Source: Ilumatobacteraceae bacterium (GTDB lineage Bacteria > Actinomycetota > Acidimicrobiia > Acidimicrobiales > Ilumatobacteraceae). Taken from it: a stretch of 64,000 nt of DNA. Of this stretch, positions 1-59,740 are shown piece by piece. How positions within the stretch are numbered: the first letter of the stretch is position 1; every line of letters begins with the position of its first letter. The DNA is taken from positions 53,812-117,811 of the forward strand of contig CAVOQV010000017.1 in assembly GCA_963698435.1 (NCBI GenBank). The letters are read 5' to 3'. The translations under genes were made by a program, and so were the position numbers. The notes under the pieces were generated by a model that saw only the letters and a list, made by a program, of their open reading frames with translations, did not search any database and was not told where the DNA came from.

Positions 1-191
1 CACCAGGTCGAGCATCGAACGTGCGACCGACGCCTCGCCGCTGACGTGTACCGCACCGCCGATCGCCTCGGCGACGTCCGGGATCGAACCACCCGTCCAG
101 CGCCGGACCTCGTAGCGGAACACCCGCCACCGCCGCAGACTGCGCAGGCCGACCGGACCCTCTCTCAACGTTACGTCGACCGGCAACCTCG

Positions 192-244
192 ACGTTTGCG
201 TACAACTTCCGGTGGGGCCGGTCACCGAAATCCGCACGCAAACG
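192..244 (+). repeat. Copy A of a repeated two-helix hairpin element (outer stem CGTTTGCG/CGCAAACG), followed by a G-run tract
   Basis: ACGTTTGCGTACAACTTCCGGTGGGGCCGGTCACCGAAATCCGCACGCAAACG. It aligns with 14678-14735 (minus strand) and 31189-31243. Confidence 0.7.
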
Positions 245-263
245 GGATGGGGAGGGCGTCGGG

Positions 264-335
264 GCGGGGCGGGGTGGGAAGGGCGGTGGGGGTCGGTTCG
301 GGGCGGGGTGGGAAGGGCGGTTCGGGGCGGGGTGA
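264..335 (+). repeat. G-rich direct repeat (unit about TCGGGGCGGGGTGGGAAGGGCGGT, 2-3 copies), G-quadruplex-prone
   Basis: The unit is seen at about 264-287 and 298-321, with a partial copy at 322-335. There are many consecutive GGG/GGGG runs on the + strand. Confidence 0.7.
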
Positions 336-387
336 CTTCGGGCGCTCGACGGTGCTTTTCCTGCCGGGTTCCGGCAGCGTGGGGGAC

Positions 388-1613
388 GTGATTTCCCAAC
401 GAGTCGACATCGCGGTCATCGGTGCCGGTCCGGCCGGCGCGGCGACGGCGATTCAGGCCGCCCGCTCGGGCGCCCGCGTCGTCGTGTTCGAGAAGGGCGT
501 CCACGGTCGCGACAAGGTCTGCGGTGACGGCCTGACCCCGCCGCGGTCGGTGCCCTCAACGAATTGAAGATTCCCCTCGACGACGCCCACCACATCCGTG
601 GCCTGCGGATGATCGCCGGCAAGCAGGTGCGCGAACTCGACTGGCCGACCACCGACCGCTTCCCGAATCACGGCGCCGTATGGCCTCGCCGGCGACTCGA
701 CGCGGCACTGATGGACGCCGCCGTCGAGGCCGGCGCCGACATCGTGTTCGAGACCGAGGCCTCCCCGGTGATCGACGACGACGGGCGGGTCACCGGCGTC
801 GAGGCGAACGGCAACCGGATCGACGCCGACCTCACCGTGATCGCCGCAGGCGCACAGGGCGCCGTGGCGCGCAAGCTCGGCGCCGATCGCGTCCCCGACG
901 AGCCGTTCGGTCTGGCGATCCGCACCTACGCCGCGACGCCGCGGCACACCGACGTGCACCTCGAGGCGTGCCTGTCGTTGAAGGACGAGCACGGCACGGC
1001 CATCCCCGGTTACGGCTGGATGTTCCCGGCAGGCGATGGCACCGTGAACATCGGCGTCGGCGCGCTGTCGACGATGAAGGGGTTCAAGAAGCTCAATCTG
1101 AACACGCTGCTCGAGGCCTACCGCCACCTGGTGCAGGACGACTGGGACATCGGCCCGAACCTCGAACGGCCGCGTGCGTGGCGGCTGCCGATGTCGACGC
1201 AGCGCCGCCACGGTGCGGGATGGGTCGCGATCGGCGATGCCGCCGGACTGGTCAACCCGATGAACGGCGAAGGCATCGACTACGGCCTCGAGTCCGGCAT
1301 GCTGGCCGCCGACCTCTTCCTCGAGAACCCAGCCACCGCACCGGCCCGCTACGACCAACTCGTCGGTGAACGGTTCGACGCGTTCCTCCGAACCGGGCGG
1401 CGGTTCTCATTCCTCATCGGCCATCCCTGGATCCTGAAGCCCGGCCTCCGGCTGTCGGTGAGCACCGACGCGATCGCCAACATCACACTGGCCGTCATGG
1501 GCAACCTGGTCGACAACACGACACCCGGAGCAGCCGGGCGGGTGCTGTCGCTCGCCGACAAGACGCTGGGTCTCGCCGACCCGATCCTGCGCAAGACCCG
1601 CGCGGCCGCCTGA
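388..1613 (+). pseudogene. Geranylgeranyl reductase family FAD-dependent oxidoreductase, with the reading frame interrupted within 528-567
   Basis: The Rossmann motif DIAVIGAGPAGAATA and CGDGLTP lie in the frame of ORF 46..567 (GTG 379 or 388). The protein continues as ALNELKIPLDD...PGYGWMFPAGDGTVNIGVG...GDAAGLVNPMNGEGIDYG in the frame of ORF 564..1613. One extra C in the run at 536-539 would give GDGLTPAAVGALNEL. Confidence 0.75.
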
Positions 1614-10628: not shown

Positions 10629-13109
10629 TCACGCGTCGACGAGCTGCCTGTCGCGCTCTTCGTTCTCGCGTTGCTCTTCCTCGTGGGCGAGGGCGATGGC
10701 ACTCGTGTGCGTCCCACCCTCGACGTTGAGCGTCGGCAAGATGCGATCGAGCCACCCGGGCAACCACCAGTTCCGGGCGCCGAGCAGTTCCATCGTGGCC
10801 GGCACGAGCAGCATGCGGACGAACGTCGCGTCGAGGAACACCGCCGATGCCAAGCCGAGGCCGAACATCTTGATGATGCGGTTGTCCTCGAGCACGAAGC
10901 CGGCGAACACCACGATCATGATCGCGGCAGCGGCGGTGATCACGCGGGCGGTTGCTGCGAGGCCGTCGGCCACGGATCCCTTCGGGTCGCCCGTGCGGTC
11001 GAACTCCTCCTTGACGCGTGACAGCAGGAACACCTCGTAGTCCATCGAGAGGCCGAACACGATCGCGAACATCATCATCGGCAGGAACGGCTCGATCGGT
11101 CCGCCCGCGGTGTTGAACAGCGACGCACCCCAGCCCCAGCCGAACACGGCGACCACGATGCCGTAGGCGCCGCCGATCGACAGCATGTTCATGATGACCG
11201 CCTTGAGCGGCACCAGCACCGAGCGGAACACCATCATCAGCAACAGGAACGACAGCGAGAGCACGGCGATGAAGAAGATCGGGATCCGTTTCGCGAGGTA
11301 CGAACTGAAGTCGATGTTCGCTGCGACCGCACCGGACACGTTGACGACCACGTCGGTTCCGTCCGTCACCGACGGCACGACGTCGTCGCGCAGCGAGTTG
11401 ACCAGGTCGGCCGTCGCCTCGTCCTGCGGCCCGGTGGTGGGAGTCAGCCGGATGATGGCGGCCTCGGCGGTCGCCGGATCACCCGCGTTCGGGATCGGGC
11501 CGACGACGTCGGCGACGCCCTCGGTCGCCCCCAGGGTCCCGGTCAGCTCGGCGAGCACCTGGAGGTCCTGCGGCGACGACAGCTCGGCGGTCAACAGCAG
11601 CGGACCGTTGGTACCGGGCCCGAACGCCTCGCTGGTGAGGTCGTAGGCGGCACGCGTCGTGGTGCTCTCTGCGAAGTTGCTCTCGTCGGAGAACCCGAGG
11701 CGGAGACCCAGGACCGGCACCGACAACAACAGCAGGAACAGCGTCGTGGCGATCGCGATCGGCCACGGGCGGTGCTGCACGAACCGGCTCCACTTGTACG
11801 CCCAGGTCTGACGCAGCGGCTTCTCCTTGCGTGGCGGCAGCTCCTTGCGCAGCGGCGCAACAGCGAACGACGCGAGCATCACGATGACGGCGAGCGGCAG
11901 GCCGATCAGCAACGGCTGGATGCTGAGCCCCACGCCGACCAGCGCCAGCGCCACCAACCCGGCAGCGATCACCCCGCGCCAGCGCGACACCTCGATCTTG
12001 CGCTGAGCGAAACCGAGCAGCGCCGGGAGCAGGGTGACCGATGCGATCATCGTGATGAGCACGGTGACCGCAGCACCGGTCGCCAGGCCGTTGATGAACG
12101 ACAGGCCCATGATGAACATGCCGAGCAGCGAGATCACCACGGTGAAGCCGGCGAACACGACGGCACGTCCGGCGGTGTCGAGCGCGACGACCGTCGACTG
12201 CTCGGGGTCGAGGCCCGCTTTGAGCCCTTCTCGGTAGCGGGTGACGATGAAGAGGGCGTAGTCGATGCCGACGCCGATGCCGATCATGGCGCCGAGCGTG
12301 ACCGCGAAGTCGGGCACCGAGATGACATTGGACAGCAGCGTGATCAGACCGGCACCGATGCCGACGCCGAAGAGCGCCACGCCGATCGGAAGGCCCATCG
12401 CCAGGACTGAGCCGAACGACAGGATCAAGATGATGATGGCGAAGCCGAGGCCGATCAGCTCGGATTCTGGCGGCTCGAATTCGCCGAGCGCCTGGCCACC
12501 GACCTCGACCTGGAGACCGTCGATGTCGGTCGGCTTCAGGTCGGCGATGTCGGCGCCGATCTCGCCGGTTTGCGTCTCGCTGAGGTTCTCCGACAGATCG
12601 ACCTGCGCATACGCCACCTGTCCGGCGAGCGGTCCCTCGGTGGCGACCAGCCCCAGCGTCGCTCCCGCGGGAGAGTAGGGGCTGGTCAACGTGACGCCGT
12701 CGATCGCCGCGACTTCGTCGAAGAGCTCGGTCATCGCGGCGGTGACCTCGGGATCGTCGACTCCCTGATCGGCGCGGAAGATGATCGTGCCCGAGCGCCC
12801 GCTGCCGGCGCCATCGAAGTAGGCGTCGAGCGTGTCGAAGCCGCTCTTCGACTCGGAGTCGGGAATCGAGAACGAGCTGTCGCTCGAGGCGCCGATCGCG
12901 CCGACGAGTGCGAAGACGGTGACGAGCGCCGTGACCCAGGCGCCGAGCACCCACCAACGGCGGCGGAATCCGAAACGGCCGAGCTTGCCCCATGCCGAGT
13001 CGGGAACCTCGGTGGGAACGTGAGGAGCTCCGTGCGCAGGCTCGTAGGGGCGATCGGCGTCGTCGGGCTGGCCCGATGCGTCCGCGGGGGAAGTGGACGT
13101 CATGTTCAT
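10629..13109 (-). CDS. MMPL family RND-type transporter
   Basis: 826 aa from ATG 13109 (MNMTSTS). It has two 6-TM bundles, each preceded by a large soluble loop, typical of MMPL proteins. Confidence 0.85.
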   Translation of the reverse strand: MNMTSTSPADASGQPDDADRPYEPAHGAPHVPTEVPDSAWGKLGRFGFRRRWWVLGAWVTALVTVFALVGAIGASSDSSFSIPDSESKSGFDTLDAYFDGAGSGRSGTIIFRADQGVDDPEVTAAMTELFDEVAAIDGVTLTSPYSPAGATLGLVATEGPLAGQVAYAQVDLSENLSETQTGEIGADIADLKPTDIDGLQVEVGGQALGEFEPPESELIGLGFAIIILILSFGSVLAMGLPIGVALFGVGIGAGLITLLSNVISVPDFAVTLGAMIGIGVGIDYALFIVTRYREGLKAGLDPEQSTVVALDTAGRAVVFAGFTVVISLLGMFIMGLSFINGLATGAAVTVLITMIASVTLLPALLGFAQRKIEVSRWRGVIAAGLVALALVGVGLSIQPLLIGLPLAVIVMLASFAVAPLRKELPPRKEKPLRQTWAYKWSRFVQHRPWPIAIATTLFLLLLSVPVLGLRLGFSDESNFAESTTTRAAYDLTSEAFGPGTNGPLLLTAELSSPQDLQVLAELTGTLGATEGVADVVGPIPNAGDPATAEAAIIRLTPTTGPQDEATADLVNSLRDDVVPSVTDGTDVVVNVSGAVAANIDFSSYLAKRIPIFFIAVLSLSFLLLMMVFRSVLVPLKAVIMNMLSIGGAYGIVVAVFGWGWGASLFNTAGGPIEPFLPMMMFAIVFGLSMDYEVFLLSRVKEEFDRTGDPKGSVADGLAATARVITAAAAIMIVVFAGFVLEDNRIIKMFGLGLASAVFLDATFVRMLLVPATMELLGARNWWLPGWLDRILPTLNVEGGTHTSAIALAHEEEQRENEERDRQLVDA

Positions 13110-13116
13110 TATTGGA

Positions 13117-13135
13117 CATTCTGACCAGTAGAATG
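13117..13135. promoter_or_regulatory. Inverted repeat CATTCT-N7-AGAATG in the MMPL/TetR divergent spacer (candidate TetR operator)
   Basis: AT-rich palindrome within the 106-bp spacer 13110-13215. Confidence 0.35.
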
Positions 13136-13215
13136 AGCAATGGCAACAACGGACTCTGCAACGTGTCCGACGACACATCGGTTCGCAGCCAGACCAAACG
13201 CACCCTGCAATCCAG

Positions 13216-13821
13216 ATGACGACCCCCTCCGACGTATCCAGCCCTCCCCGTGCCGATGACCCGCGAGTCGAACGCACACGGGCGGCCGTGATCGAGGCAG
13301 CGTCCGATCTCCTCGTCGCCGACGGCCCCGCTGCCATCACCCACGCCAACGTCGCGACGGCGGCGAACGTGAGCCGAACCACCGTGTACACCCATTGGCC
13401 GACACGCGAGGACCTGCTGAGGGCGGCGATCGATTCAGTCGGCCGGGTTGCGCCGAACCTCGACGACCTCGTCGGCCCGATCCGCACCGATCTCGAGATC
13501 CTCTGCGGTCACCTGATCGAGGACCTGATCGACGATCAGCGCGCTCCCATGATCGCCAACATGATGGAACGTGCACTGCACGATCCCACGGTGGTCACCG
13601 TCCGCGACGAGTTCGTCGAGTTGTTCGAGCATGCGTTCGGCGTAGCGATCGAGCGCGGGATCGAGCGCGGCGAACTCCGCTCCGACATCGACGTTCGCCT
13701 CAGCGTGGCATCGATCGTGGGCAGCTTCCTGTTCGCCCGCTTCATGTCGAGCAGCGGCTTCGATCGAGCGCACGCCGAAGCCGTCCTCGACGACTTCGTC
13801 AAGGTCAACGCCCCGCGCTGA
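13216..13821 (+). CDS. TetR family transcriptional regulator, divergent from the MMPL gene
   Basis: HTH ...RTRAAVIEAASDLLVADGPAAITHANVATAANVSRTTVYTHWPTREDLL. Confidence 0.85.
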   Translation: MTTPSDVSSPPRADDPRVERTRAAVIEAASDLLVADGPAAITHANVATAANVSRTTVYTHWPTREDLLRAAIDSVGRVAPNLDDLVGPIRTDLEILCGHLIEDLIDDQRAPMIANMMERALHDPTVVTVRDEFVELFEHAFGVAIERGIERGELRSDIDVRLSVASIVGSFLFARFMSSSGFDRAHAEAVLDDFVKVNAPR

Positions 13822-13883
13822 CACTGCGCCGACCCCTGCGCTGACCCTGGGCCGCCCGTTCGACCCGAACAGAGAAGACAGGC

Positions 13884-14642
13884 TCAGGCGTCGCGACGGG
13901 CGATCAGCGCCTCGATCGGCACCAGGTCGAAGGGGTGGCCGGTCATCACGATCAGGTGCGTCGCCCCGGCCTCCAGGTACTGGTCCGCGATCGGGACGTC
14001 CTCGGCGGAGATGAGCACCGTGCGCTCGATCTCCGACCGATCGCGGCCGAGCTCGTCGCACCAGCGATCGAGCACCGCGTTCTTGTGGGCGAACGTCTCC
14101 GGTGGGCCGAACGAGTTCCAGGCATCCGCGTGTTCTGCGGTCAGCTTCAGTGTGACCTTCTCGCCGGAGCCACCGACGAGGATCGGCAGGCCGCCGATGG
14201 GGGCCGGGTTCAGCTTGCCGAGGCGGGCCTTGAGCCGCGGCAGATCGTCACGCAGCTTGTGCAGCCGGTTGATCGCGGTGCCGAACTCGTAGCCGTACTC
14301 GCTGTAGTCGCGCTCGAACCAACCGGCCCCGATACCCAGGTACATCCGGCCTCCCGACACGTGGTCCGCGGTGCGTGCGATGTCGGCGAGCAGCTCAGGG
14401 TTGCGGTAGCTGTTGCACGTGACGAGCATGCCGAGTTTGGCCCGCTCCGTGTCGGCAGCCATCGCGGTGAGAATCGTCCACCCCTCGAAGTGTGGTGCGT
14501 CGGGATCGCCGTACAACGGGAAGAAGTGGTCCCACGTCCAGATCGAGTCGACCCCCAACGATTCTGCACGTCGCCACGCGTCGCGGAGCTCGACGTACGA
14601 CGTTGCCTGCGGATGGAGCTGGACACCGACGTGAAAGGTCAT
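13884..14642 (-). CDS. LLM class F420-dependent oxidoreductase
   Basis: 252 aa from ATG 14642 (MTFHVGVQLHPQ). Motifs DSIWTWDHFFP, GIGAGWFERDYSEYG and LPILVGGSGEK. Confidence 0.8.
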   Translation of the reverse strand: MTFHVGVQLHPQATSYVELRDAWRRAESLGVDSIWTWDHFFPLYGDPDAPHFEGWTILTAMAADTERAKLGMLVTCNSYRNPELLADIARTADHVSGGRMYLGIGAGWFERDYSEYGYEFGTAINRLHKLRDDLPRLKARLGKLNPAPIGGLPILVGGSGEKVTLKLTAEHADAWNSFGPPETFAHKNAVLDRWCDELGRDRSEIERTVLISAEDVPIADQYLEAGATHLIVMTGHPFDLVPIEALIARRDA

Positions 14643-14677
14643 GTCGCCCAGTGAAGCATCCCCCCCACCCCCCGACG

Positions 14678-14735
14678 CCACGTTTGCGCACGATTCCCGG
14701 TGGACCGCCCCACCGAAATCGCGACGCAAACGTGG
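14678..14735 (-). repeat. Copy B of the repeated hairpin element, followed on the minus strand by GGGGGGTGGGGGG and the LLM start codon
   Basis: The minus strand reads CCACGTTTGCGTCGCGATTTCGGTGGGGCGGTCCACCGGGAATCGTGCGCAAACGTGG, then CGTCGGGGGGTGGGGGGATGCTTCACTGGGCGAC-ATG. Confidence 0.7.
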
Positions 14736-14754
14736 AGAGCCGAGGGCGCGAGCG

Positions 14755-15891
14755 TCAGCGGCGGCGAACGATGACGCTGCCGACGGAGTAGCCGGCACCG
14801 AAGGAACAGAGCACGCCGACGTCACCGGATGAGAGATCGTCACGGTGGCGATGGAACGCGATCACCGATCCGGCCGAGCTCGTGTTGGCGAACTCGTCGA
14901 GGATCACCGGGGCTTCGTCGTCGGTCGGCAGACGACCGAGCACGCCCTTGGCGATCAGCTGATTCATCTTCAGGTTGGCCTGGTGCAGCCAGAACCGACG
15001 CACGTCCTCCGCGGCGAGGTCGAGCTGCGTGAGGTGGTCCATGATGTGCTCGGCCACCATCGGGCAGACCTCACGGAACACCATCTGACCGTTCTGTCGG
15101 AACACGAGTTCCTGCGGGTCGCGCTCGGTGACCTCGGACGAATTGAGGAACCCGAAGTCGTTGCGGATGTTGTTGGAGAACTTGGTGACCAGCTTGGTGC
15201 CGAGCACCTCCCACTGGACCGGGGCCGTCGCATCCTCGGTGCGCTCCAGCACCAGAGCGGTGCACGCGTCGCCGAAGATGAAGTGGAAGTCGCGCATCTC
15301 GAAGTTGTTGTGACCGGACGTGATCTCCGGGTTGACCACGACCACGCAGTTCGCCGATCCGTTGCGCAACGCGTCCACACCTGCTTGCACGGAGAACGTG
15401 GCCGACGAGCAAGCGACATTCATGTCGTATCCCCAACCTTCCGCGCCGAGGGCGTCCTGGATCTCGATCGCCACCGCCGGGTAGGGCCGTTGGAGGTTCG
15501 AGCACCCGACGATCACCGCGTCGACGTCACCCGGATCGCGACCGGCCTGCGCGAGCGCCTCGTGGATCGCCGGCATCGACATCTCGGCCTGGATGCCCAG
15601 CTGATCCTCGCCTCGCGTCTCCAGTCGTGGACGCATCCGAGCGGGGTCGAGCACGCCCGACTTCTCCATCACGTAGCGCCGCTCGATGCCGGACGCCTTG
15701 ACGATGAACTCCTCGTCGGGCACCGCACGCTCGGCCACGTCGCCGCTGGCGATCTCCTCGGCATGCTCGGCGTTCCACTTGAGCACCGCCTCCGTGAGCG
15801 ACGCGACCAACTCCGCGTTGCTGACGGATTCGGGCGGCGTGAACAGCCCGGTTCCGGTGATCGAGACGGACGGCAGGTCGACGAGCGGCAT
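14755..15891 (-). CDS. Beta-ketoacyl-ACP synthase III family protein (long FabH-like form)
   Basis: 378 aa from ATG 15891. Cys-His-Asn contexts NVACSSATF, WLHQANLKM and FANTSSAGS. Confidence 0.85.
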   Translation of the reverse strand: MPLVDLPSVSITGTGLFTPPESVSNAELVASLTEAVLKWNAEHAEEIASGDVAERAVPDEEFIVKASGIERRYVMEKSGVLDPARMRPRLETRGEDQLGIQAEMSMPAIHEALAQAGRDPGDVDAVIVGCSNLQRPYPAVAIEIQDALGAEGWGYDMNVACSSATFSVQAGVDALRNGSANCVVVVNPEITSGHNNFEMRDFHFIFGDACTALVLERTEDATAPVQWEVLGTKLVTKFSNNIRNDFGFLNSSEVTERDPQELVFRQNGQMVFREVCPMVAEHIMDHLTQLDLAAEDVRRFWLHQANLKMNQLIAKGVLGRLPTDDEAPVILDEFANTSSAGSVIAFHRHRDDLSSGDVGVLCSFGAGYSVGSVIVRRR

Positions 15892-15922
15892 GGAACCGAC
15901 GCTAACCCCCGTGCTCACCCGG

Positions 15923-16516
15923 TCATCCCACCCAGGTCCGCACGAGCGACCGCAGCGTGTCGATGCCGTCCCCCTTGGATGCACTCACCCACACGATGTC
16001 GCCCTGGTCGAGCTGGCACCCGGCGGCGAGCTCCTTCTTGCGCGTGGCCCGTTTCGACGACTTCACCTTGTCGAACTTGGTGGCGACCACCGTGTGCGGC
16101 ACGCCGTGATAGCGCAGCCAGTCGAGCATCTGCGCGTCGAGTGTCGTCGGGCCGATCGCACCGTCGACGAGCACGAACACCATCGACAGGTTCTCGCGTT
16201 CGAGCAGATACCCCTCGATCATCTCCGGCCAGTCCCGCTTGACGTTCTTCGCCGCCTTCGCGAAGCCATAGCCGGGAAGGTCGACCATCGTGGCCGTGTC
16301 CGGCCGGGCGCTGTCGACGTCGAACATGTTGATCAGCTGCGTGCGTCCGGGCGTGTTCGACACCCTGGCGAGCTGCTTGCGGTTGGCGAGCGCGTTGATC
16401 AGCGACGACTTGCCGACGTTGGATCGGCCGACGAACGCCACCTCGGCCGGCGATTCGGGGAGCTGATCCACCCGACTCGCCGACTGGACGAACCTCAGAC
16501 GCAGTGGACCACTCAT
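15923..16516 (-). CDS. engB: Ribosome biogenesis GTP-binding protein YsxC/EngB
   Basis: G1 GRSNVGKSS, G3 DLPGYG, G4 TKFDK. 197 aa. Confidence 0.9.
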   Translation of the reverse strand: MSGPLRLRFVQSASRVDQLPESPAEVAFVGRSNVGKSSLINALANRKQLARVSNTPGRTQLINMFDVDSARPDTATMVDLPGYGFAKAAKNVKRDWPEMIEGYLLERENLSMVFVLVDGAIGPTTLDAQMLDWLRYHGVPHTVVATKFDKVKSSKRATRKKELAAGCQLDQGDIVWVSASKGDGIDTLRSLVRTWVG

Positions 16517-16707
16517 GGCATCATCCTCGCACCCCCCAACGCCTCCACCACCCGGACAACCCCACCGGTGCCCAACCGGTGCGATGAGCGAAACGACCGG
16601 AGATGCGCACTTCGCTCATCGCTGACCGAACTCGCATCGGTGGTGACGTTTCCCCGTCAGGAGAGGAATCGCTCGCATCCACGAATGCCGCGTCGTACTG
16701 TTCTCCC

Positions 16708-17334
16708 ATGGCACACAGCACTCCGAAGCGACTCGGGTTCGCGGTCGCCGCGGCCGGGCTGGCCGTGGCGCTCACCGCGTGCGGGAACGCCACCGAGACC
16801 GGCATCGAAAAGCTCATCGAATCGCAAGGCGGCGGCGACGTCGACCTCGACCTCGACGCGGAGGGTGGCTTCTCGGTGGAGACCGAAGAAGGCGGGATGT
16901 CGATCGACGAGGACGGCAACTTCGTGATCACCGACGCCGACGGATCCGTCGTGACCGGCAACGCCGATGCCGAGACCGGCGAGTTCGTCGTCGAGAGCGA
17001 GGACGGCAGCTTCAGCTCCGGCTCGACCACCGAACTCCCCGAGGAGTGGCCCACCGAGATCCCCGAACCGGATGGCCTCGCGATCAGCAGTGCCACGGTC
17101 ATCGGATCGGACACCGAACAGGCGATCACGGTCACGGGCAGCGTCGACAGCGTGGACTTCGTCGACGCCTACGGCAGCACCCTCGAGTCGGCGGGCCTCG
17201 ACGAGGAGTCGACGTTCAAGTCCGACGGCACGGTCAACAACGTGTACCGCAACGACCGGTGGACGGTGGGCGTGCTCTACTACGGCGACGCGGGCGACGA
17301 CCAGGTCACCGTCTCGATCTACTCCAACAGCTGA
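16708..17334 (+). CDS. Lipoprotein of unknown function (acidic, repetitive)
   Basis: MAHSTPKRLGFAVAAAGLAVALTAC gives a signal peptide and lipobox. The mature part is D/E/G/S/T-rich. Confidence 0.6.
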   Translation: MAHSTPKRLGFAVAAAGLAVALTACGNATETGIEKLIESQGGGDVDLDLDAEGGFSVETEEGGMSIDEDGNFVITDADGSVVTGNADAETGEFVVESEDGSFSSGSTTELPEEWPTEIPEPDGLAISSATVIGSDTEQAITVTGSVDSVDFVDAYGSTLESAGLDEESTFKSDGTVNNVYRNDRWTVGVLYYGDAGDDQVTVSIYSNS

Positions 17335-17544
17335 TCAGCCGCTGATCAAGGACGCGAGCGCCCAGATCGCCGCAACGAGGCCGATCCCCGCGTAGACGGC
17401 GCTGCGCAGCACGGGTGCCCGCTCGAGGTTCGTGTCGTCGAGCTGTTTCGCCGGTGGCTTGACGATCGCCAGGAAATTCCCGACGAACAACGCGCCACCG
17501 AACGCCAGGGTCAGCCACGCGAGGAGATCCTCTCCGAGAAACAT
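17335..17544 (-). CDS. Small two-TM membrane protein (hypothetical)
   Basis: MFLGEDLLAWLTLAFGGALFVGNFLAIV...AVYAGIGLVAAIWALASLISG. An alternative start is at 17583. Confidence 0.4.
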   Translation of the reverse strand: MFLGEDLLAWLTLAFGGALFVGNFLAIVKPPAKQLDDTNLERAPVLRSAVYAGIGLVAAIWALASLISG

Positions 17545-17576
17545 GGCCACAGGATGCCGCCTTCTATGCTCATTCG

Positions 17577-18938
17577 GTGCCACGCGGCGGACTGCTCGCT
17601 GAGATCAGGAATCCCGCGCAACTCGTGGTCGGTGCGTTCACCGCCTTCATCGTGTTCGGCACCGGATTGCTCTGGCTTCCGATCGCCGCCGACGGACCTG
17701 GCCACATCGGCCTGGAGGACGCCCTGTTCACCTCCACGTCCGCAGCAACCGTGACCGGCCTGGGATCCACCGACATCACGCGGTTCTCGCTCTTCGGTGA
17801 GCTGGTCATCTTGATGCTGATCCAGATCGGTGGCTTCGGCATCATGACGATCGGGTCGGTGCTCGCCATCGTCGCGTCGAGTCGGGTCGGGTTGCGCCAG
17901 CGCATGCTCGCCCAGGCCGAGATCGGCGCCGTCGACATGGGGGATCTGCGACGCCTGATCCTTGCCATCGCCAAGATCACGCTGGCCGCGGAGGCAACGC
18001 TGGCGACGATTCTCTTCGTGCGGTTCTGGCAGGGCGGCTACGAAGACGGGCCGATCGCGTCGGCGTACTCGGGCATCTTCCATTCCATCGCATCGTTCAA
18101 CAACGCCGGGATCTCGCTGTATCCGGACAACCTGACCCGTTTCGTCGCCGATCCTGTCGTGGTCCTGAGCGTGTCTGCCACGTTCATCATCGGTGGTCTC
18201 GGCTTCCCGATCCTCGTGGAGTTCTGGCGCCGTTCGGCTCGACGGGGCACGACGGCGCGCACCCACTGGTCGCTGCACACCAAGATCACGCTGCTGGTCA
18301 CCGCGGCACTGTTGATCTTCGGACCCATGGTGGTGATGACGTTCGAGTGGACGAATCCAGCCACCCTCGGACCGCTCGACACGTTCGACAAGGTCCTCGC
18401 CGGGTGGTTCCAGGGCGTCACGCCGCGAACCGCCGGATTCAACACCGTCGACATCGGCGGCATGAACGAGCCGACCCTGCTCGTGATCACGACCCTGATG
18501 TTCATCGGCGCCGGCCCGGCGTCGACCGCCGGCGGCATCAAGGTGACGACGTTCGCGGTCCTCGGGTTCGTGCTCTGGTCCGAGGTGCGTGGCAATACGG
18601 ACATGAACGTGTTCGGTCGCCGGTTGCCGGCGAACCTGATCCGCCAAGCCCTCACGGTCGCCCTGCTCGCGATCGGCCTCGTCGTGGGCGCAACGCTGGC
18701 CCTGATGAGCGTCGAGGACCTCTCGCTGACGCCGGCGCTGTTCGAGATCACCTCGGCGTTCGGCACCGTCGGACTCTCGACCGGCGTCACAGGCAGCATC
18801 GGCGCCACCGGGCACCTCCTCCTGGTGATCGTGATGCTTGCGGGCCGCGTCGGACCCGTCACCTTCGTCACCGCACTCGCGCTGCGCGAGCGCATTCCCG
18901 CATACCGTTATCCCGAGGAGCGACCGATCATTGGCTGA
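17577..18938 (+). CDS. trkH: TrkH/KtrB family potassium uptake membrane protein
   Basis: 453 aa, multi-pass, with repeated pore-loop motifs (SAATVTGLG, FNNAGIS, TAGFNT, TAGGIKV). Confidence 0.85.
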   Translation: MPRGGLLAEIRNPAQLVVGAFTAFIVFGTGLLWLPIAADGPGHIGLEDALFTSTSAATVTGLGSTDITRFSLFGELVILMLIQIGGFGIMTIGSVLAIVASSRVGLRQRMLAQAEIGAVDMGDLRRLILAIAKITLAAEATLATILFVRFWQGGYEDGPIASAYSGIFHSIASFNNAGISLYPDNLTRFVADPVVVLSVSATFIIGGLGFPILVEFWRRSARRGTTARTHWSLHTKITLLVTAALLIFGPMVVMTFEWTNPATLGPLDTFDKVLAGWFQGVTPRTAGFNTVDIGGMNEPTLLVITTLMFIGAGPASTAGGIKVTTFAVLGFVLWSEVRGNTDMNVFGRRLPANLIRQALTVALLAIGLVVGATLALMSVEDLSLTPALFEITSAFGTVGLSTGVTGSIGATGHLLLVIVMLAGRVGPVTFVTALALRERIPAYRYPEERPIIG

Positions 18939-18954
18939 CAAAATTCTTCACACG

Positions 18955-19638
18955 ATGCTGGGCGGAATGCGCCCGCAGGTCCAACACCGAGGCGAGATCG
19001 TCGTCATCGGGTTGGGCCGGTTCGGGTCGGCGCTCGCCTCGACGCTGATCGAGATGGGCCACGAGGTCCTCGGCCTCGACGCCGACGAGGACCGCGTCCA
19101 ACAGCACGCCGAGGTGCTCACCCACGTCGCCCAGGCGGACACCACGAACGAGAAGACACTTCGTTCGCTCGGTGTCGCCGATGCGGTCACCGCGGTTGTC
19201 GCGATCGGGGCGGACGTCGAGGCGAGCGTGTTGACGACCGGCGCGCTGGTCGACATCGGTGTGCCCAACATCTGGGCCAAGGCGCTCACCGAATCGCACG
19301 GTCGCATCCTTCAGCGTGTGGGCGCGCACCACGTCGTCTTTCCCGAGGCCGAGATGGGCAGTCGCGTCGCTCGACTCGTGACGGGAGCGCTGATCGAGTA
19401 CTTCGCGCTCGACGACGACTTCGTTCTGATCGAAACGCAGGTGCCGCGCAACCTTGCGGGCAAGAAACTCGGCGACACCGACCTGCGCGCCACGTACAAG
19501 GTGACCGTCGTGTGTATCAAGCCGGAAGGCCAGGCGTTCACGTACGCCGAGAGCGCGACCCTGCTCGGCGAGCACGACCTGATCGTCGTCGCGGGCCACC
19601 GCGGCGACATCGAACGTTTCGCCGACAAGGAGACGTGA
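18955..19638 (+). CDS. trkA: TrkA family potassium uptake NAD-binding protein
   Basis: Rossmann [14 protein letters not shown] followed by a TrkA-C domain. The start is uncertain (ATG 18955/18967, or TTG 18931 overlapping the trkH stop). Confidence 0.85.
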
Positions 19639-19698
19639 CGACTCCCCGACACGGAGACGTGACGACTCCCCGACACGGAGACGTGACGACTCCCCGAC
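19629..19698 (+). repeat. Perfect 24-bp tandem repeat, 2.9 copies (GGAGACGTGACGACTCCCCGACAC)
   Basis: Units at 19629-19652, 19653-19676 and 19677-19698. The first unit contains the trkA stop codon. The array ends 76 nt before the BVMO start. Confidence 0.95.
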
Positions 19699-19774
19699 GA
19701 CGTCCGCGGGCGTGTCGCCGGCAGCGTCTCCGTCCGCGTCGCCACGACTGCGTGCGGTTGGCTACAACCTTTCG

Positions 19775-21583
<1,809 letters not shown>

Positions 21584-21585
21584 GT

Positions 21586-21616
21586 GTGACGTCTGGGGTC
21601 TGACCCCAGACGTCAC
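21586..21616. terminator. Perfect 15-bp-arm palindrome between convergent genes (bidirectional terminator candidate)
   Basis: GTGACGTCTGGGGTC-t-GACCCCAGACGTCAC, 3 nt after the BVMO stop. The core CGTCTGGGG...CCCCAGA is shared with 38277-38317. Confidence 0.6.
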
Positions 21617-21625
21617 CGCCCGGCC

Positions 21626-23290
21626 TCAGGTGGGGGCGGTCGTCGACGTCGCCGTCGTCGTGGTGGTCGTGGCGGTGATGTCGCGACGCTGGATGAACAG
21701 CACCGTGACACGATCGTCGTCGTCGAGCAGCTCGGTGATGTCCGCGACGAGTGCCGAGGCGTCGGGGTCGGCCGGGCCTGCGACTTCGATCACTGCGTCG
21801 ACGCCGTCGAACGTGGTCGACAACACCGAGACGTCCTGCGTCGCGGCCCAGTCCCGGGCGAGCACGCCGATGCGTTCGGCGAGGAGCTCATCGGGAGTCG
21901 GTGTCGGCTCGCGATCGGACACGCTCTCGCGCTTCAGCCACGTCATCTGTACCTCGAAGGTCCGATCGAGCTCGCTGTCGAGGAGTGCCGTGAGCGACTC
22001 GAGCGACGGTGCGTCGATCGTGCCGCTCGCGTCGAGGCGGATCACGTTGTCGCTGATCGAGAGGGCGTCCCGGCGTCCACCGGCATCGGCGCCGAGATCC
22101 GCCAGCCAGCGATCGACGATCGACTGGACGTCGGCGAAGAGGCGCTCCTCGTCGGACACGATCGTCGTCGGCGGCGCTGTCGTGGTCGTCGTCGTGGCCT
22201 GGTCGACGCGATCCCACTCGATCGACACGACCCGCTCGGCACCGAAGCTCGCCTGCAGCGCAGCGACCAGCGGATCGGGGTCAGGCGGCGTGTCGAAACT
22301 GCGAACCGCCACCGTGATGCGCTGATCGTCGAACGACACCTGGGGGGCACCGCGTCGATCGGTCGGGCCGAGCCATGTGGACACGATGTCGAGCGCTTCG
22401 ACCTCCCGCTCGGACCGTTCGACCGCCGCGGTGGATGCGCTGTACAGCGGCAACGCGATCGCCACGACCACGACGCCGACGATGGCCGACACCGCGGCGG
22501 TCCGGCGAAACGTGGTCGCCAGGCGACGCGGTGGAACGAATCCCGTCACCACGAAGACCACGACCCCGGCGAGCACGATGGCGAACAGGTTGGTCGTGTA
22601 CAGCAGCATCGCCCCCCACGCGAACGTTGCGTTGCCGGCCTCGAGTGAGATGCCCACCGCTCCCAACGGCGGAACGAGCGCGACGGCCACTGCCACACCG
22701 GGAAGCGATGCCGAGGCATCCTTGCGCACCGTGGCGTAGGCGCCGGCGGTGCCGGCGGCGAGCGCCACCACGAGGTCGCGGATGTCGGGCGCCGTGCGAC
22801 TGGTCACCTCGTTGGGGAGTTCACCGTTGACGAACAGCGCCGCGAGCACGTACGACAGCAGGATCGCCCACAGCGTGGCAAGCACCACCACGGCGAGCGA
22901 TCGCAGCGACTTGCGGAACAGCGCCATCGCAATGCATGCAGCCGCCCCCAACACCGGCTGCATGAGCGGAGCGAGGAGCATCGCCCCGATGACCACCGCC
23001 GCGGAGTCCGCAGACAGGCCCATGACCGCGACGATCACCGACAAGGTGATCATCACCGTGAACCGATATCCCCAGTGGTCCTGGCGTTTGATGGCGAGTT
23101 CCGCCATCACCCGCTGACGTTCCTCGGAGTTCAGGTGGCGATGCCACCAACGCCGAGTGGCTCGTCGATGGACACCGAGGCTCGGGTCGTCGGTCGACTG
23201 CTCCAACTCCGGCGTGGCATGGGCGTCCTCGGACTCCATTCCGGCGCCTTCGAAGCCGGTGGGGCCCGAGAAACCACGGGGGTTGGTCAC
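21626..23290 (-). CDS. DUF389 (TIGR00341-type) membrane protein with a long C-terminal soluble extension
   Basis: DSAAVVIGAMLLAPLMQPVLG...GVAVAVALVPPLGAVGISLEAGN. The start is uncertain (23290 or 23239). Confidence 0.7.
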   Translation of the reverse strand: MTNPRGFSGPTGFEGAGMESEDAHATPELEQSTDDPSLGVHRRATRRWWHRHLNSEERQRVMAELAIKRQDHWGYRFTVMITLSVIVAVMGLSADSAAVVIGAMLLAPLMQPVLGAAACIAMALFRKSLRSLAVVVLATLWAILLSYVLAALFVNGELPNEVTSRTAPDIRDLVVALAAGTAGAYATVRKDASASLPGVAVAVALVPPLGAVGISLEAGNATFAWGAMLLYTTNLFAIVLAGVVVFVVTGFVPPRRLATTFRRTAAVSAIVGVVVVAIALPLYSASTAAVERSEREVEALDIVSTWLGPTDRRGAPQVSFDDQRITVAVRSFDTPPDPDPLVAALQASFGAERVVSIEWDRVDQATTTTTTAPPTTIVSDEERLFADVQSIVDRWLADLGADAGGRRDALSISDNVIRLDASGTIDAPSLESLTALLDSELDRTFEVQMTWLKRESVSDREPTPTPDELLAERIGVLARDWAATQDVSVLSTTFDGVDAVIEVAGPADPDASALVADITELLDDDDRVTVLFIQRRDITATTTTTTATSTTAPT

Positions 23291-23392
23291 GACCGGATCC
23301 TAGGGACTGCCCACGGTCGACGTACACGATGTGTCCGGCCTGTCGTGGACGTCCAGGTCTCGGTCGTACACGGCGGGGCGCGAGACTGGTTC

Positions 23393-25126
23393 ATGGCCGA
23401 CTACGACCTGATCATCCGAGGTGGTTCCGTCATCGACGGCACCGGCACAGAAGCTCGTACCGCCGACGTGGCGGTCGTCGACGGCATCGTCGCCGAGGTC
23501 GGGGCGGTCGTCGGCAACGCCCGCCGCGAGATCGACGCCGACGGTGCGCTCGTCATCCCAGGCATCGTCGACATCCACTCCCACTACGACGGTCAGGCCA
23601 CGTGGGACGAACGGCTACAGCCGTCGTCATGGCATGGCGTCACCACCGTGGTCACAGGGAACTGTGGGGTCGGATTCGCGCCGGTGCACGACGCCGATCA
23701 CGACAAGCTCATCGAGCTGATGGAGGGTGTCGAGGACATCCCGGGCGCGGCATTGCACGAGGGATTGCGATGGAACTGGAACTCGTTCGGCGAGTTCCTC
23801 GACGCCGTCGACTCGATCCCTCACGACATCGATGTCGCCATGCAGGTACCGCACGGCGCACTGCGCCTCAACGTCATGGGCGAGCGTGGCGCCAACCACG
23901 AGGACGCCACACCGGACGACATCGCCGCGATGGCCGAGCTCGCCCGACAGGGAATCGAGGCGGGCGCTCTCGGCTTCAGCACCAGTCGCACCAGGAATCA
24001 CAAGACCTCGACCGGGGCCTATACCCCGACGCTGACTGCCGCACCGGACGAGCTGATCGGGATCGCCCAGGGTGTCGGTGCAACGGGCACCGGCGTCCTG
24101 CAGGTCGTGTCCGACTTCCTCGATCCCGACGGTGAGTTCGCGATGCTGCGCGAGATGGTTGCCACGTCGGGGCGGCCGATGTCGATCTCGATCGCGCGCA
24201 ACCCGATGGTGCCCGACGCATTCCGTGGCCTGCTCGACCATCTCACCGCTGCGAACGCGGACGGCTTGGCGATGACGGGCCAGGTGGCGCCACGAGCGGT
24301 CGGCCTGATCCTCGGCCTGGAATGCACCCTCAACCCGTTCCTCACCAACCCGGTGTACCGGGAGATCGCCGACCGTCCGCTGAACGAACGGGTCGCGGCG
24401 CTTCGCGACCCCGCGTTCCGCGAGCGCCTCCTCGCAGAGGCCGCTGAACGATCACGGGACAAACTCGGCGGGAATCTGATCGGCCGGTTCGATCTGTTGT
24501 TCGAGATGACCGACGAGCCCGACTACGAGCCATCACCCGACAGCTCGATTCACGCCATTGCCTCGCGTTCGGATCGCAGCCCCGAGGAACTCGCGCTCGA
24601 CGCACTGCTCGCCGACGACGGCCACGGGCTGCTCTATCTGCCCTTCCTGAACTACGTCGACGGCAGTCTCGACGGGTGCCACGAGATGCTCGTGCACCCG
24701 CACACCGTGCCCGGCCTCGCCGACGGTGGCGCGCACGTCGGCACCATCTGCGACGGCAGCTTCCCGACCACCCTGCTCGCCTACTGGGGCCGCGACCGCG
24801 ACCACGATCGGATTCCGTTGCCGTTCCTCGTGCAGCGCCACTGCCGCGACACCGCGCGCACCGTTGGACTGCACGACCGGGGCGTCATCGCCCCCGGCTA
24901 TCGCGCGGATCTCAATGTGGTGGACTTCGACCACCTCCGGCTGCACAAGCCCGAGATCGTCCACGACCTCCCGGCGAACGGGCGGCGGCTCCTGCAGCGC
25001 GCCGACGGCTGGCGCCACACGATCGTGGCCGGCCGCGAGACCTACCACGACGGCGTGGCAACCGATGCCCTGCCCGGCCGCCTGATCCGCGGCGCCCAAC
25101 CCGCACCATCGGGAACGCTTCGATGA
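23393..25126 (+). CDS. N-acyl-D-amino-acid deacylase (D-aminoacylase) family amidohydrolase
   Basis: [18 protein letters not shown]..., metal motif [20 protein letters not shown]. 577 aa. Confidence 0.85.
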
Positions 25127-26178
25127 CCACGGCCGACACACCGACACCGCTGCACGAGGTCGTCGAGCTGGAGACCCACGCCAACTGGACCGCGACCCAC
25201 ATCGGCAACCCCGACGACTGGACGCTGCAGCTCACCGACGCCCATCACACCGAACTCGATGCAGCGCTGGCACGTGCTCGATCGACGACCGACGAACTCC
25301 TCGACGTCACCGCTGACGACTTTCCGCTCCCCACCCTCGGGGCGCGGTTGGCGGCGATGGCCGCGGAGTTGGTGAACGGTCGAGGGTTCGCCAGGATCGC
25401 CGCGCTCGATGTCGATCGGCTCGGCGCGGAGGACGCCTCGTGGATCTACTGGGGCATCGGCCGTCACCTGGGCGAGCCGTGGCCGCAGAACGCGAAAGGT
25501 CACCTGCTCGGCGACGTCACGGATCAGGGCAAGGCGCCGGACGATCCAACCGCCCGCGGCAACGAGATCGGTGGTCATCCGCTCGGTTTCCACAGCGACG
25601 GCTCCGACCTCGTCGGACTGCTCTGCATCGACGACGGTCTCAGCGGGGGGGAGAGCCTGGTCGCCAACGCTGTCGGCGCCTACAACGCACTCGTGCGCAC
25701 CCGGCCGGATCTTGCCGCGGTGCTCTACGAGCCCCTGCCGTACGACTTCCGTGGCGAGCAACGCGACGGGGCCCGACCCTTCTATTCGATTCCGGCGTTC
25801 ACACGCCACGTTGGCCCGACGGGCGATCGACTCTTCGTCCGATACATCCGGCCCTTCATCGAGGCGTCACAACGACATCCCGACGCACCACGGCTGACCG
25901 CCCTCCAGGTCGAGGCGATGGACGCCTACGACGCGCTGATCGACGATCCCGACAACCAGGTGGAGATGGCGTTGCGGCCCGGCGACATCCAGTTCGTCAA
26001 CAACTACCACGTCCTGCACGGCCGTCGTCGGTACGTCGACGACGCCGACTCCGGTCGCGTCCGATGGCTCAAGCGCCTCTGGCTGGCCACCGACATCCTC
26101 GGCCCCGACGACCGTCCCGGCCGCTTCCAACGAGCCGGCGCCATGGGTCATTGGGGCGCTCAGCGCACCAAGGCCTGA
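25123..26178 (+). CDS. TauD/TfdA family Fe(II)/2-oxoglutarate dioxygenase
   Basis: HxD motif in GFHSDGSD, and late NNYHVLHGRR. ATGA overlap with the amidohydrolase stop (25123-25126). Confidence 0.8.
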   Translation: MTTADTPTPLHEVVELETHANWTATHIGNPDDWTLQLTDAHHTELDAALARARSTTDELLDVTADDFPLPTLGARLAAMAAELVNGRGFARIAALDVDRLGAEDASWIYWGIGRHLGEPWPQNAKGHLLGDVTDQGKAPDDPTARGNEIGGHPLGFHSDGSDLVGLLCIDDGLSGGESLVANAVGAYNALVRTRPDLAAVLYEPLPYDFRGEQRDGARPFYSIPAFTRHVGPTGDRLFVRYIRPFIEASQRHPDAPRLTALQVEAMDAYDALIDDPDNQVEMALRPGDIQFVNNYHVLHGRRRYVDDADSGRVRWLKRLWLATDILGPDDRPGRFQRAGAMGHWGAQRTKA

Positions 26179-26218
26179 GGAGCGCCCCCCCCCCCGATGT
26201 ACTCGACCCGTGTTTCGA

Positions 26219-26890
26219 TCAGAGTTCGTCGAGTATCTGCTGGCGCTTCGTGGCGTACTCGGCGTCGTTGACCAGCCCTTGTTCCTTCATGTCCTCGAGA
26301 GCGGCGAGCCGTTCCTGGGGTGTCGGACCCGCCGGTGCCTGCGGATTCGTCTCGACGTGCTCGCGCATCGCCTTGGCCAGCGAGGCCGCGTCGCGATCGG
26401 AGTCGCGCTGTTCGTCGGCTTCGACCTGAGCAAAGATCAGCGTGCGGACCTTCTCAGGGTCGGGAATGTTCTCGAAGACCGAGTCGCCGGTCTCGCCCGC
26501 CGACTCGATCGTGACGACGCCGTTGTTCAGGATCCTGGCGATGAACGACTGCTCGAAGTTGACGTTGTTGATGCGGTTCAACGGAATCGACACACCGCGG
26601 CGCCGGAAGATCCCACTCTGGTACGCAACGCGCTGATCGGTGATGGCAAAGCGCGTGGTCTGCCACTGCACGAACTCGTAGATCGTGTCGAGGATCAACA
26701 CGATGAACGCGATGAGCGTGATCCAGCCGATGACGGTGTCGAGCCAGTCGGCATCGACGGTCCAGAGCAGCAGCAACAACAACAGGACGCCGGCCGCTGC
26801 GGCGACCTGCTTCCAGAAGTAGAACCAGTGGGGGTTCGACGCGAGGATCATCTTCTCGTCGGGCATCAGGTCGATGTCGGGACCAAACAT
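26219..26890 (-). CDS. Membrane bPH (DUF304/YdbT-like) domain protein with a C-terminal SHOCT domain
   Basis: Two TM helices, then TTRFAITDQRVAYQSGIFRRRGVSIPLNRINNV. The C-terminus ERLAALEDMKEQGLVNDAEYATKRQQILDEL is SHOCT-like. Confidence 0.7.
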   Translation of the reverse strand: MFGPDIDLMPDEKMILASNPHWFYFWKQVAAAAGVLLLLLLLWTVDADWLDTVIGWITLIAFIVLILDTIYEFVQWQTTRFAITDQRVAYQSGIFRRRGVSIPLNRINNVNFEQSFIARILNNGVVTIESAGETGDSVFENIPDPEKVRTLIFAQVEADEQRDSDRDAASLAKAMREHVETNPQAPAGPTPQERLAALEDMKEQGLVNDAEYATKRQQILDEL

Positions 26891-26929
26891 GGCGCGAACT
26901 GTAGTACCCGGGGCGGGCGACGCGATCAG

Positions 26930-27238
26930 TCACAGGATCAATCGGGTGAGCGCCGTTGCGGCCGCCGCCAGGAGGATCACCACGATGAACGGAAACTTGC
27001 GCCACAGGGCCAGCCCGGCAACAACGAGTCCGACCAGGCGGGCATCGATCACGATCGTCCGGCCGTCGCTCACCGTCGACACGATCGTGAGCGCCGCGAG
27101 CAACGCCGCAGGGAGCAGATCGACCACCTGCTGCACGCGAAGCGGCAGCGCGCGATCACCGAGCACGAGCGGGCCAGCGGACTTGAACGCAAAGGTTCCG
27201 ACCGTCATCACGATCAGTACGACGGTCGCGTCACTCAC
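26930..27238 (-). CDS. azlD: Branched-chain amino acid transport protein AzlD
   Basis: 102 aa, hydrophobic. Its GTG start overlaps the azlC stop (GTGA at 27235-27238). Confidence 0.7.
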   Translation of the reverse strand: MSDATVVLIVMTVGTFAFKSAGPLVLGDRALPLRVQQVVDLLPAALLAALTIVSTVSDGRTIVIDARLVGLVVAGLALWRKFPFIVVILLAAAATALTRLIL

Positions 27239-27960: not shown

Positions 27961-27994
27961 GAGGCGCAGTCTTGCGCCGGTAGCGTCCGACGAC

Positions 27995-28693: not shown

Positions 28694-28738
28694 GTGCGGC
28701 AGGGCTCAGCTCGGGGCCGAGGAGCCGACGGCACCGGC

Positions 28739-29983: not shown

Positions 29984-30119
29984 CGCGGAAACCTACCGAC
30001 ACGACGCCACCGCGAACCCCGGAGTCGTGCGGGACATCGCCACCAGGCGACGATCTGCGCACGTTCGGTCCGAACCGTCCCATTTCATTGCGGACGCAAA
30101 GATATTCGGATAGGATGGG

Positions 30120-31163: not shown

Positions 31164-31188
31164 CAACTCCGGAGCGCCCCAGCCCCCT

Positions 31189-31243
31189 CGTTTGCGTGAC
31201 ATTTCGGGCGGGACGGGTCACCTGAACCTGCGCGCAAACGTGG
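31189..31243 (+). repeat. Copy C of the repeated hairpin element, followed by ATGGGGTGGGTGGG...GGGGGG-ATG
   Basis: CGTTTGCGTGACATTTCGGGCGGGACGGGTCACCTGAACCTGCGCGCAAACGTGG. It ends 31 nt before the methyltransferase ATG (31275). Confidence 0.7.
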
Positions 31244-31274
31244 ATGGGGTGGGTGGGCCAGCGAAACTGGGGGG

Positions 31275-59724: not shown

Positions 59725-59740
59725 TGTTTCACGTGAAACA
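59725..59740. other. parS centromere-like site (perfect TGTTTCACGTGAAACA)
   Basis: Exact 16-bp palindrome in the parA-rsmG spacer. Confidence 0.9.

Follow-up and report, generated by a model that had tools for sequence, protein, structure and literature searches.

Bidirectional intrinsic terminators consist of an A-tract, a GC-rich hairpin, and a U-tract and are sited between convergent genes, and the mycobacterial interspersed repetitive units (MIRUs) are intergenic elements of 50–100 bp with varying tandem copy number; tandem arrays are the defining trait of MIRUs, which lack a long palindrome. Repetitive extragenic palindromes (REPs) of Proteobacteria and others are dispersed intergenic palindromes of 20–40 bp that lie mostly downstream of coding regions between convergent or unidirectional genes, with a GTAG or CGTC tetranucleotide at one end and stems of 5–13 bp in the GTAG group and 8–9 bp in the CGTC group; they form species-specific families of singletons and clusters, can flank an associated Y1/HUH transposase gene (REPtron), and presumably function as RNA hairpins once transcribed (PMC3733652). 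The “tuberculosis Rho-independent terminator” (TRIT) of the RNIE paper has 147 copies in Mycobacterium tuberculosis and is reported only from Mycobacterium; TRIT is palindromic and hence bidirectional, and its conservation suggests that a factor binds the duplex motif (PMC3152330). Here, we describe a hairpin element found in a stretch of 64,000 nucleotides from an Ilumatobacteraceae bacterium (contig CAVOQV010000017.1, positions 53,812 to 117,811; hereafter “the window”), where three intergenic copies, A, B, and C, share the same ends. With a probability of roughly 0.7, these three hairpins are members of a dispersed, strand-symmetric, REP-like palindrome family present in part of the Ilumatobacteraceae (Acidimicrobiia, Actinomycetota) whose units probably also form a bidirectional hairpin at RNA 3′ ends. 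That they belong to a dispersed REP-like repeat and are not leaders appears highly probable, and the proposed function at RNA 3′ ends is put forward tentatively at slightly less than even odds; the window copies are not specific regulators of the genes downstream of them.

The pattern CGTTTGCG-N(25-55)-CGCAAACG has exactly 3 matches in the 64-kb window (193-244, 14681-14732, and 31189-31240), and the spacer is 36 nt in all three, each unit being 52 nt of the form CGTTTGCG-N36-CGCAAACG. Not one match occurred in any of 100 dinucleotide-preserving shuffles of the window, and a covariance-model search of the whole window with filters off recovered no copies beyond A, B, and C, degenerate ones included. 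An initial annotation of this DNA had placed three copies at these sites with gaps of 143 (A), 35 (B), and 31 nt (C) from hairpin to start codon, and both the places and the gaps proved correct.

A scan for CGTTTGCG-N36-CGCAAACG across one genome per bacterial species yielded at least 119 loci, and about 100 of those listed are from 40 assemblies comprising metagenome-assembled genomes (MAGs) of Ilumatobacteraceae and the cultured Ilumatobacter nonamiensis. Around 15 of the listed matches come from other phyla; these lack the inner palindrome, and their number equals the chance expectation for 16 fixed bases. The family was analyzed in a gap-free alignment of 111 copies (A2) and with a covariance model of the repeat (R1), which detects about 141 sites in the 748 kb of 100 family loci. 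Five matches on viral contigs reached only 17–22 bits at 47% GC, as expected by chance, so that an association with phages was rejected. Rfam 15 at gathering thresholds gave no match in the window and five family loci, bearing out the earlier impression that this is no named family, and the sole match in a permissive Rfam scan of window positions 100-420, to CRISPR-DR20 (E = 7.3), is a chance hit. Searches of the literature turned up no earlier account of such a repeat in Ilumatobacter or Acidimicrobiia.

Across the family, the 52 nt form a single continuous stem of about 24 bp with a loop of 4–6 nt, and most copies are near-perfect palindromes (e.g., L003, CGTTTGCGTTGCATTTTCGGTGACC-CG-GGTCACCGAAAATGCAACGCAAACG) with folding energies of the units ranging from -35 to -48 kcal/mol. 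The initial annotation had described a hairpin of two helices, which is indeed what the window copies display but, family-wide, represents a decay state of this one stem. When A2 is read as a single stem, 76.5% of its cells are paired compared to 69.1% in shuffles and 35–43% in slid registers. Double changes that keep the pairing fill 424 cells where 253 are expected (0 of 500 shuffles as high), and each interior pair occurs as 3–5 Watson-Crick types, so that the retention of pairing through substitutions first seen in three copies extends to 111. Conserved core positions are the outer box, T15, G22, C26-G27 as part of a central CCGG, C31, and A38. The invariance of the outer box in A2 is given by construction because the scan demanded it; the outer stem had also been called invariant from the window, where it is exact in all three copies, but L122 carries a compensatory change within the box (CGTTTGTG...CACAAACG), and copies found via the neighboring pirin protein and therefore unbiased by the motif are 89% identical in the outer 16 nt and 58% identical in the interior. 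The 8-bp base box CGTTTGCG/CGCAAACG and the CCGG-centered apex are thus conserved, whereas the middle of the stem is variable yet self-complementary, and in the full unit the 52-nt palindrome is preceded by a C-rich tract of about 20–40 nt and followed by a G-rich one that is similarly long.

The tracts on both sides are a specific property of the family. In the 5′ flank, C rises to 50% with G at 10%, and in the 3′ flank, G rises to 50% (44–50% G with 14–21% T); these skews fade over around 50 nt, compared to 37% C and 31% G after stop codons or 33% of each before start codons in element-free gaps at the same loci. We rejected the C/G skew as a general trait of 3′-end hairpins in these genomes because it is near zero for unrelated intergenic hairpins (+0.8 and +0.45 vs. 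+7.7 and +7.2 for family copies). Being an inverted repeat over its full length, the unit shows the order C-tract, hairpin, and G-tract on each strand, and the G tail therefore cannot orient a copy; R1 scores are about equal on both strands for every copy. The G-rich tail that had been noted for every copy is present in the window (22 G in the 30 nt 3′ of the hairpin for A, 17 for B on the minus strand, and 16 for C), but it defines no orientation because the opposite flank is C-rich, with 15–17 C per 30 nt for B, 16 for C, and, as an exception, 11 for A. A G-rich apex side and the G tail were likewise rejected as guides to the orientation of a copy, as neither is related to the direction of transcription (21 vs. 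17; flank skews of 9.7 vs. 10.5). The flanks resemble each other in composition and not in sequence, which is unconserved, and are variable in length and often microsatellite-like; a copy's own flanks form 18.2 pairs compared to 17.4 when flanks are swapped between copies (p = 0.16). An obligate G-quadruplex was rejected for the flanks, given that a canonical motif occurs on 24 of 216 sides (11%), which is about 50 times the background of 0.2% in random windows.

Gene contexts were assigned using a gene caller based on codon bias and best suffix scores that was checked against database calls for L001. Among 97 classifiable copies, 36 lie in convergent, 46 in co-directional, and 15 in divergent gaps, compared to 72, 205, and 112, respectively, for all gaps of at least 70 nt at the same loci (chi-square 24.6, p = 4.5e-6), and the difference persists if only high-scoring neighbors are counted (16 convergent, 25 co-directional, and 5 divergent; p = 0.001). 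Between convergent genes, a median of 16–22 nt separates the core from the stop codons, and the unit with its arms often makes up the whole intergenic region; only 6 of 112 copies fall within gene calls. The repeat is therefore enriched at gene 3′ ends. This contradicts the proposal in the initial annotation that the hairpin is a leader or operator directly 5′ of co-oriented genes: more than a third of the copies (36/97) are convergent without a downstream start, only 15 are divergent, and the element itself is strand-symmetric, which amounts to the absence of orientation and position bias relative to starts that had been named there as evidence against a leader. The 109 flanking proteins that we scanned are spread over 120 Pfam families, the commonest being luciferase-like monooxygenases with five, and hence give no sign of a regulon. 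Downstream of copy C, a -10-like hexamer (GAAACT; 31263..31268, plus strand) that is part of the neighboring gene and outside the repeat is located 6 nt before the methyltransferase ATG at 31275. The corresponding motif nAnACT-N6-7-ATG is conserved before the gene downstream of pirin (window 31263-31277, L121-L142) and persists at orthologous loci that lack the repeat and have a different downstream gene. It is probably the -10 element of a leaderless transcript, in which case the methyltransferase's own promoter would lie after the hairpin and the hairpin outside the downstream transcript.

The copies also behave as a repeat. Interior identity is 74% within assemblies compared to 55% between them, a value not matched by any of 2000 label permutations, and each genome has a recognizable consensus (e.g., TCGGGATTTCTGAGGACCGGTCCTCAGAAATCCCGA for a pair of MAGs, GGAG...CTCC for a different one). 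Single units are found at most sites, and clusters are head-to-tail tandem duplications: R1 detects 16 tandem arrays of 2–3 near-identical units with periods of 68–96 nt, mostly 72. A CRISPR-like nature of these arrays was rejected because any one array repeats the same “spacer” and its units are tandem duplicates with few differences. In the gap between the pirin and methyltransferase genes, metagenome loci with 82–97% pirin identity carry one unit, two tandem units, decayed units, or none (L130), and L102 carries three, while loci with pirin identity of no more than 74% have another downstream gene and no copy within 3 kb. The convergent junction of the methyltransferase gene and purK is empty in the window, where the genes overlap, and holds one or two units in L133-L135, as an approximate filled/empty pair. 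Repeat units are therefore gained, lost, and decayed at orthologous sites. The window copies are among the least palindromic of the family (interior palindromy 0.44–0.50) and look like old, partly decayed members.

We propose that copies arise as near-perfect palindromes through mobilization or gene conversion that would need the hairpin together with the conserved base box and that new copies would then decay with little selection acting on any single one. Birth as perfect palindromes followed by decay would account for covariation between subfamilies as well as for the absent preference for G-U pairs. Transcription from either side would leave the message of the upstream gene with a highly stable 3′-terminal RNA hairpin, which may serve as a bidirectional 3′-end barrier by aiding pausing or termination and by blocking exonucleases, as E. 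coli REPs do. The C-rich, G-poor tract upstream of the hairpin has a composition typical of Rho entry sites and may double as one. Two of the window copies come after stop codons, B after that of a KASIII-like gene and C after that of a pirin gene. Tails in the family are G-rich and not U-rich, so the units cannot be canonical intrinsic terminators, and the repeat copies were not reported by a terminator scan of positions 13001-33000, which span B and C. Nor does the window show an excess of canonical terminators with a hairpin and a U-tract (8 sites vs. 6.3 ± 2.5 in shuffles).

Several points weigh against this reading. The RNA role of the hairpin is one that we infer from sequence, and a hairpin without a U-tract would not be expected to terminate on its own, the mycobacterial polymerase being reported to require a U-tract (PMC3993855). 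In co-directional copies read along the transcribed strand, G-U pairs (64) show no bias over A-C mismatches (55), which argues against strong RNA-level selection on individual copies. No transposase or other mobilizing gene was found near the copies; Y1/RAYT proteins (REP-associated tyrosine transposases) are absent from the Pfam families matched by at least 2 of the 109 flanking proteins scanned, and none of five pairs of closely spaced copies encloses a transposase. With 52 nt and a stem of about 24 bp, the repeat is larger than REPs with their stems of 5–13 bp, and it has no GTAG or CGTC end tag and instead the same 8-bp box CGTTTGCG/CGCAAACG at both ends. Furthermore, the family set was ascertained by an exact outer motif with a fixed spacer, and the gene caller errs and misses some genes, so that context counts are approximate.

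Placement after stop codons and between convergent genes could also reflect selection, with the copies forming a TRIT-like family of factor-dependent bidirectional terminators that persists for its role in termination and is neither selfish nor neutral. A lineage-specific protein might bind the CGUUUGCG/CGCAAACG duplex box, or the C-tract might zip onto the nascent G-tract and thereby strip the transcript from the polymerase. Consistent with such a family, the order of C-tract, hairpin, and G-tract mirrors that of A-tract, hairpin, and U-tract with a skew that is specific to the repeat, the flanks are able to pair in about 18 of 36 positions of predicted folds, orthologous sites retain the base box, the window has no excess of canonical terminators with a U-tract, and TRIT is a precedent. 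We nevertheless consider this explanation unlikely because individual copies are decayed or lost at orthologous sites of close relatives, 15 of 97 copies sit in divergent gaps, the transcribed strand has no G-U preference, and genome-specific interiors suit amplification better than independent maintenance. In addition, rG:dC hybrids are strong. The U-tract requirement reported for the mycobacterial polymerase also speaks against it (PMC3993855). A more specific version, in which the C-tract/hairpin/G-tract unit would serve a high-GC lineage as a U-tract-independent bidirectional terminator (or as a module of Rho entry plus pause), with the CGUUUGCG/CGCAAACG box read by a lineage-specific factor and the C-tract zipping onto the nascent G-tract in place of a weak U:A hybrid, is a long shot.

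A miniature inverted-repeat transposable element (MITE), i.e., a non-autonomous DNA transposon using the C- and G-rich flanks as terminal inverted repeats with its transposase encoded elsewhere, would match the inverted-repeat build of the unit, its size of around 100–130 bp, its dispersed and intergenic occurrence, the genome-specific subfamilies, and the varying presence at orthologous junctions. Specific terminal inverted repeats are, however, rejected by flanks that pair with their own partner no better than with a swapped one (18.2 vs. 17.4, p = 0.16), with unconserved sequence and variable, often microsatellite-like length, and no transposase is enriched among the flanking proteins, which leaves a MITE very improbable. 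The small REP/MITE-like element that the initial annotation had offered as one option was right in kind; copies lie mostly after genes. We give little credence to the idea that the palindrome is a double-stranded DNA site of a dimeric regulator with the adjacent genes as its regulon: the conserved 8-bp boxes and CCGG center would suit an operator, and copies B and C abut the expected -35 position of a leaderless promoter, but complementarity is kept along all 52 nt by compensatory changes that binding to B-form DNA does not need, 37% of the copies are found between convergent genes, their neighbors in 120 Pfam families share no dominant function, and some copies form tandem arrays. The chance that the hairpin serves the downstream gene as a riboswitch or another kind of structured 5′ leader appears negligible, even though each window copy has a gene start 31–143 nt away on its G-rich side and the stems co-vary, given that the element is strand-symmetric, many copies have no downstream start, no Rfam family matches, the downstream genes are unrelated, and the -10-like motif between copy C and the methyltransferase ATG would put the hairpin outside the downstream transcript.

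Under the preferred reading as a REP-like repeat, the three window copies are best described as palindromic cores without an assigned strand, each framed by its two tracts. The core of copy A (193..244; model scores of 61.0 bits on the plus and 59.5 bits on the minus strand) has a decayed middle stem and folds as a full hairpin on the minus strand (-34.6 kcal/mol, z = -3.45). Its G-rich 3′ flank (245..335, plus strand; 22 G in the first 30 nt) is expanded by a tandem repeat and contains runs of the G-quadruplex type; the repeat occupies 254-321 with a 34-nt period and includes a 24-nt unit, TTCGGGGCGGGGTGGGAAGGGCGG, whose number differs between the window (254-332) and the near-identical assembly of L201 (2290-2385), which is behavior like that of a variable-number tandem repeat. 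The same two assemblies also differ by a 3-nt indel at window positions 135-137. According to Pfam, copy A lies upstream of a FAD/geranylgeranyl-reductase-type gene with a frameshift, and on its other side there is probably a small minus-strand open reading frame (ORF), which would make the gap divergent. The frameshift in this gene (388-1613) is located near 536-567 and leaves two ORFs, 388-567 and 564-1613. In L201, 20 nt of this GC-rich stretch read differently but are likewise out of frame, so that we are dealing with a pseudogene or with misassembly of a GC-rich run.

Copy B (14681..14732; 60.0/59.7 bits) folds with -47.5 kcal/mol and z = -4.0 on the minus strand and z = -6.9 on the plus strand. 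It separates the stop of the KASIII-like gene (14755-15984, minus strand) from the start of a luciferase-like monooxygenase gene (13884-14642, minus strand; both by Pfam). One flank (14643..14680), G-rich on the minus and C-rich on the plus strand with 17 C in the adjacent 30 nt of the latter, fills the entire gap to the ATG at 14642, and the other (14733..14754), G-rich on the plus strand with 15 G in 30 nt, reaches the KASIII stop codon (14755-14757), which leaves 22 nt from stop to core. Orthologues of this copy are found in L067 (84% nucleotide identity) and L038. Copy C (31189..31240; 61.8/54.9 bits), with the weakest stem of the three, is located between the pirin gene and the S-adenosylmethionine (SAM) methyltransferase gene (Pfam), both on the plus strand. 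Its C-rich 5′ flank (31164..31188, plus strand; 16 C in 30 nt) spans the 25 nt from the pirin stop codon (31161-31163) to the core, and the G-rich 3′ flank (31241..31262, plus strand; 16 G in 30 nt) follows the core on the other side. The same copies are present in the near-identical metagenome contigs L001 and L201, with an identical sequence of copy C in L001, and the window DNA is 74–84% identical and syntenic to L067, L038, and L102, which places it in the same bacterial family as these loci. A fourth copy at L201 47-98, which is 2.2 kb to the left of the window, has a TGA on its left and the stop of a minus-strand SDR-like gene on its right and thus appears to lie between two gene ends, with the left-hand gene cut by the contig end.

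For genome annotation, these results imply that the hairpins should not be labeled as riboswitch-like leaders. Gene callers run through the stop-free C-rich arms and generate false or over-extended ORFs. In the database, copy A is covered by an annotated Arg/Pro-rich “protein” of 224 aa (L201 1796-2470, equivalent to window positions ~1-419, minus strand), and an ORF at L063 2844-3860 gains a proline-rich ...HPRNRPPNRPPNHPPNHPP tail from a repeat arm.

Further features of the window were noted. A second, unrelated intergenic family of palindromic hairpins with the apex GGGGTCWGACCCC (GGGGCCGAACCCC in the window copy) is represented at 38279-38315, where it sits precisely between the stops of a convergent gene pair, and elsewhere at L079 1217-1253, L026 546-580, L054 5917-5949, L120 6996-7030, and L105 301-375. 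Two perfect copies of GTTTCACGTGAAAC, which we take to be the core of the canonical parS palindrome, are located at 59726-59739 and 60168-60181 (chance expectation 0.13), and this pair suggests an origin-proximal partition region, with minus-strand genes at about 59834-61713; between both parS-like sites, an intergenic, G-rich 13-nt tandem repeat (GGACGTGAGTGGG, ~6.5 copies) occupies 60055-60150. Another tandem repeat of 24 nt (CCGACACGGAGACGTGACGACTCC, 3.2 copies, 98% match) at 19622-19698 starts around the stop of an ORF ending at 19638 and lies upstream of a gene that starts near 19712-19775. Finally, an Amidohydro_3 gene at 23393-25126 (called in the database as L001 2116-3849) scores poorly under the codon model trained on the family loci and was missed by our gene caller; its codon usage may be atypical.

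The repeat family, as described by R1, is a well-defined addition to what is described for an actinobacterial family that is mostly uncultured and has received little study, and its architecture of a long perfect palindrome with a conserved base box and mirror-image C and G tracts is unusual. It raises questions that are testable in cultured Ilumatobacter, i.e., how transcript ends are formed in high-GC bacteria lacking U-tract terminators and which factor recognizes or spreads such palindromes without an evident RAYT.

Compared to the systems introduced at the outset, the repeat resembles MIRUs in that tandem number varies (1–3 units at the pirin site, as well as the 24-nt unit in the tail of copy A), but it is a long palindrome that mostly occurs as single units. 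Like a bidirectional intrinsic terminator, it places a hairpin between complementary homopolymer-like tracts so that each strand reads hairpin and then tail, yet its tails are G-rich (14–21% T) and the weak rU:dA hybrid needed for termination is absent. With TRIT, it shares the nature of a lineage-restricted actinobacterial hairpin that is conserved in sequence and structure and tied to gene termini; in the accessible part of the RNIE paper, and with TRIT compared by description only, C/G-skewed flanks are not reported for TRIT, which is positioned around -8 and thus inside the coding sequence, in contrast to a core at a median of 16–22 nt after the stop codon in the Ilumatobacteraceae (PMC3152330). 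Differences from REPs are the strongly C/G-skewed flanks, clusters that are head-to-tail and not head-to-head dimers, no RAYT seen at the flanking loci, and the host, which belongs to an Acidimicrobiia lineage. Beyond the boxes, the flank logo is only CC.../...GG, and CGTC occurs only internally (core positions 7–10) in some subfamilies; the repeat belongs to neither of the two REP super-families, GTAG and CGTC. What it has in common with REPs is a palindromic stem-loop unit in many dispersed and mostly extragenic copies, a location mainly downstream of genes in convergent or unidirectional gaps, and an organization into genome-specific families that occur as singletons and clusters.

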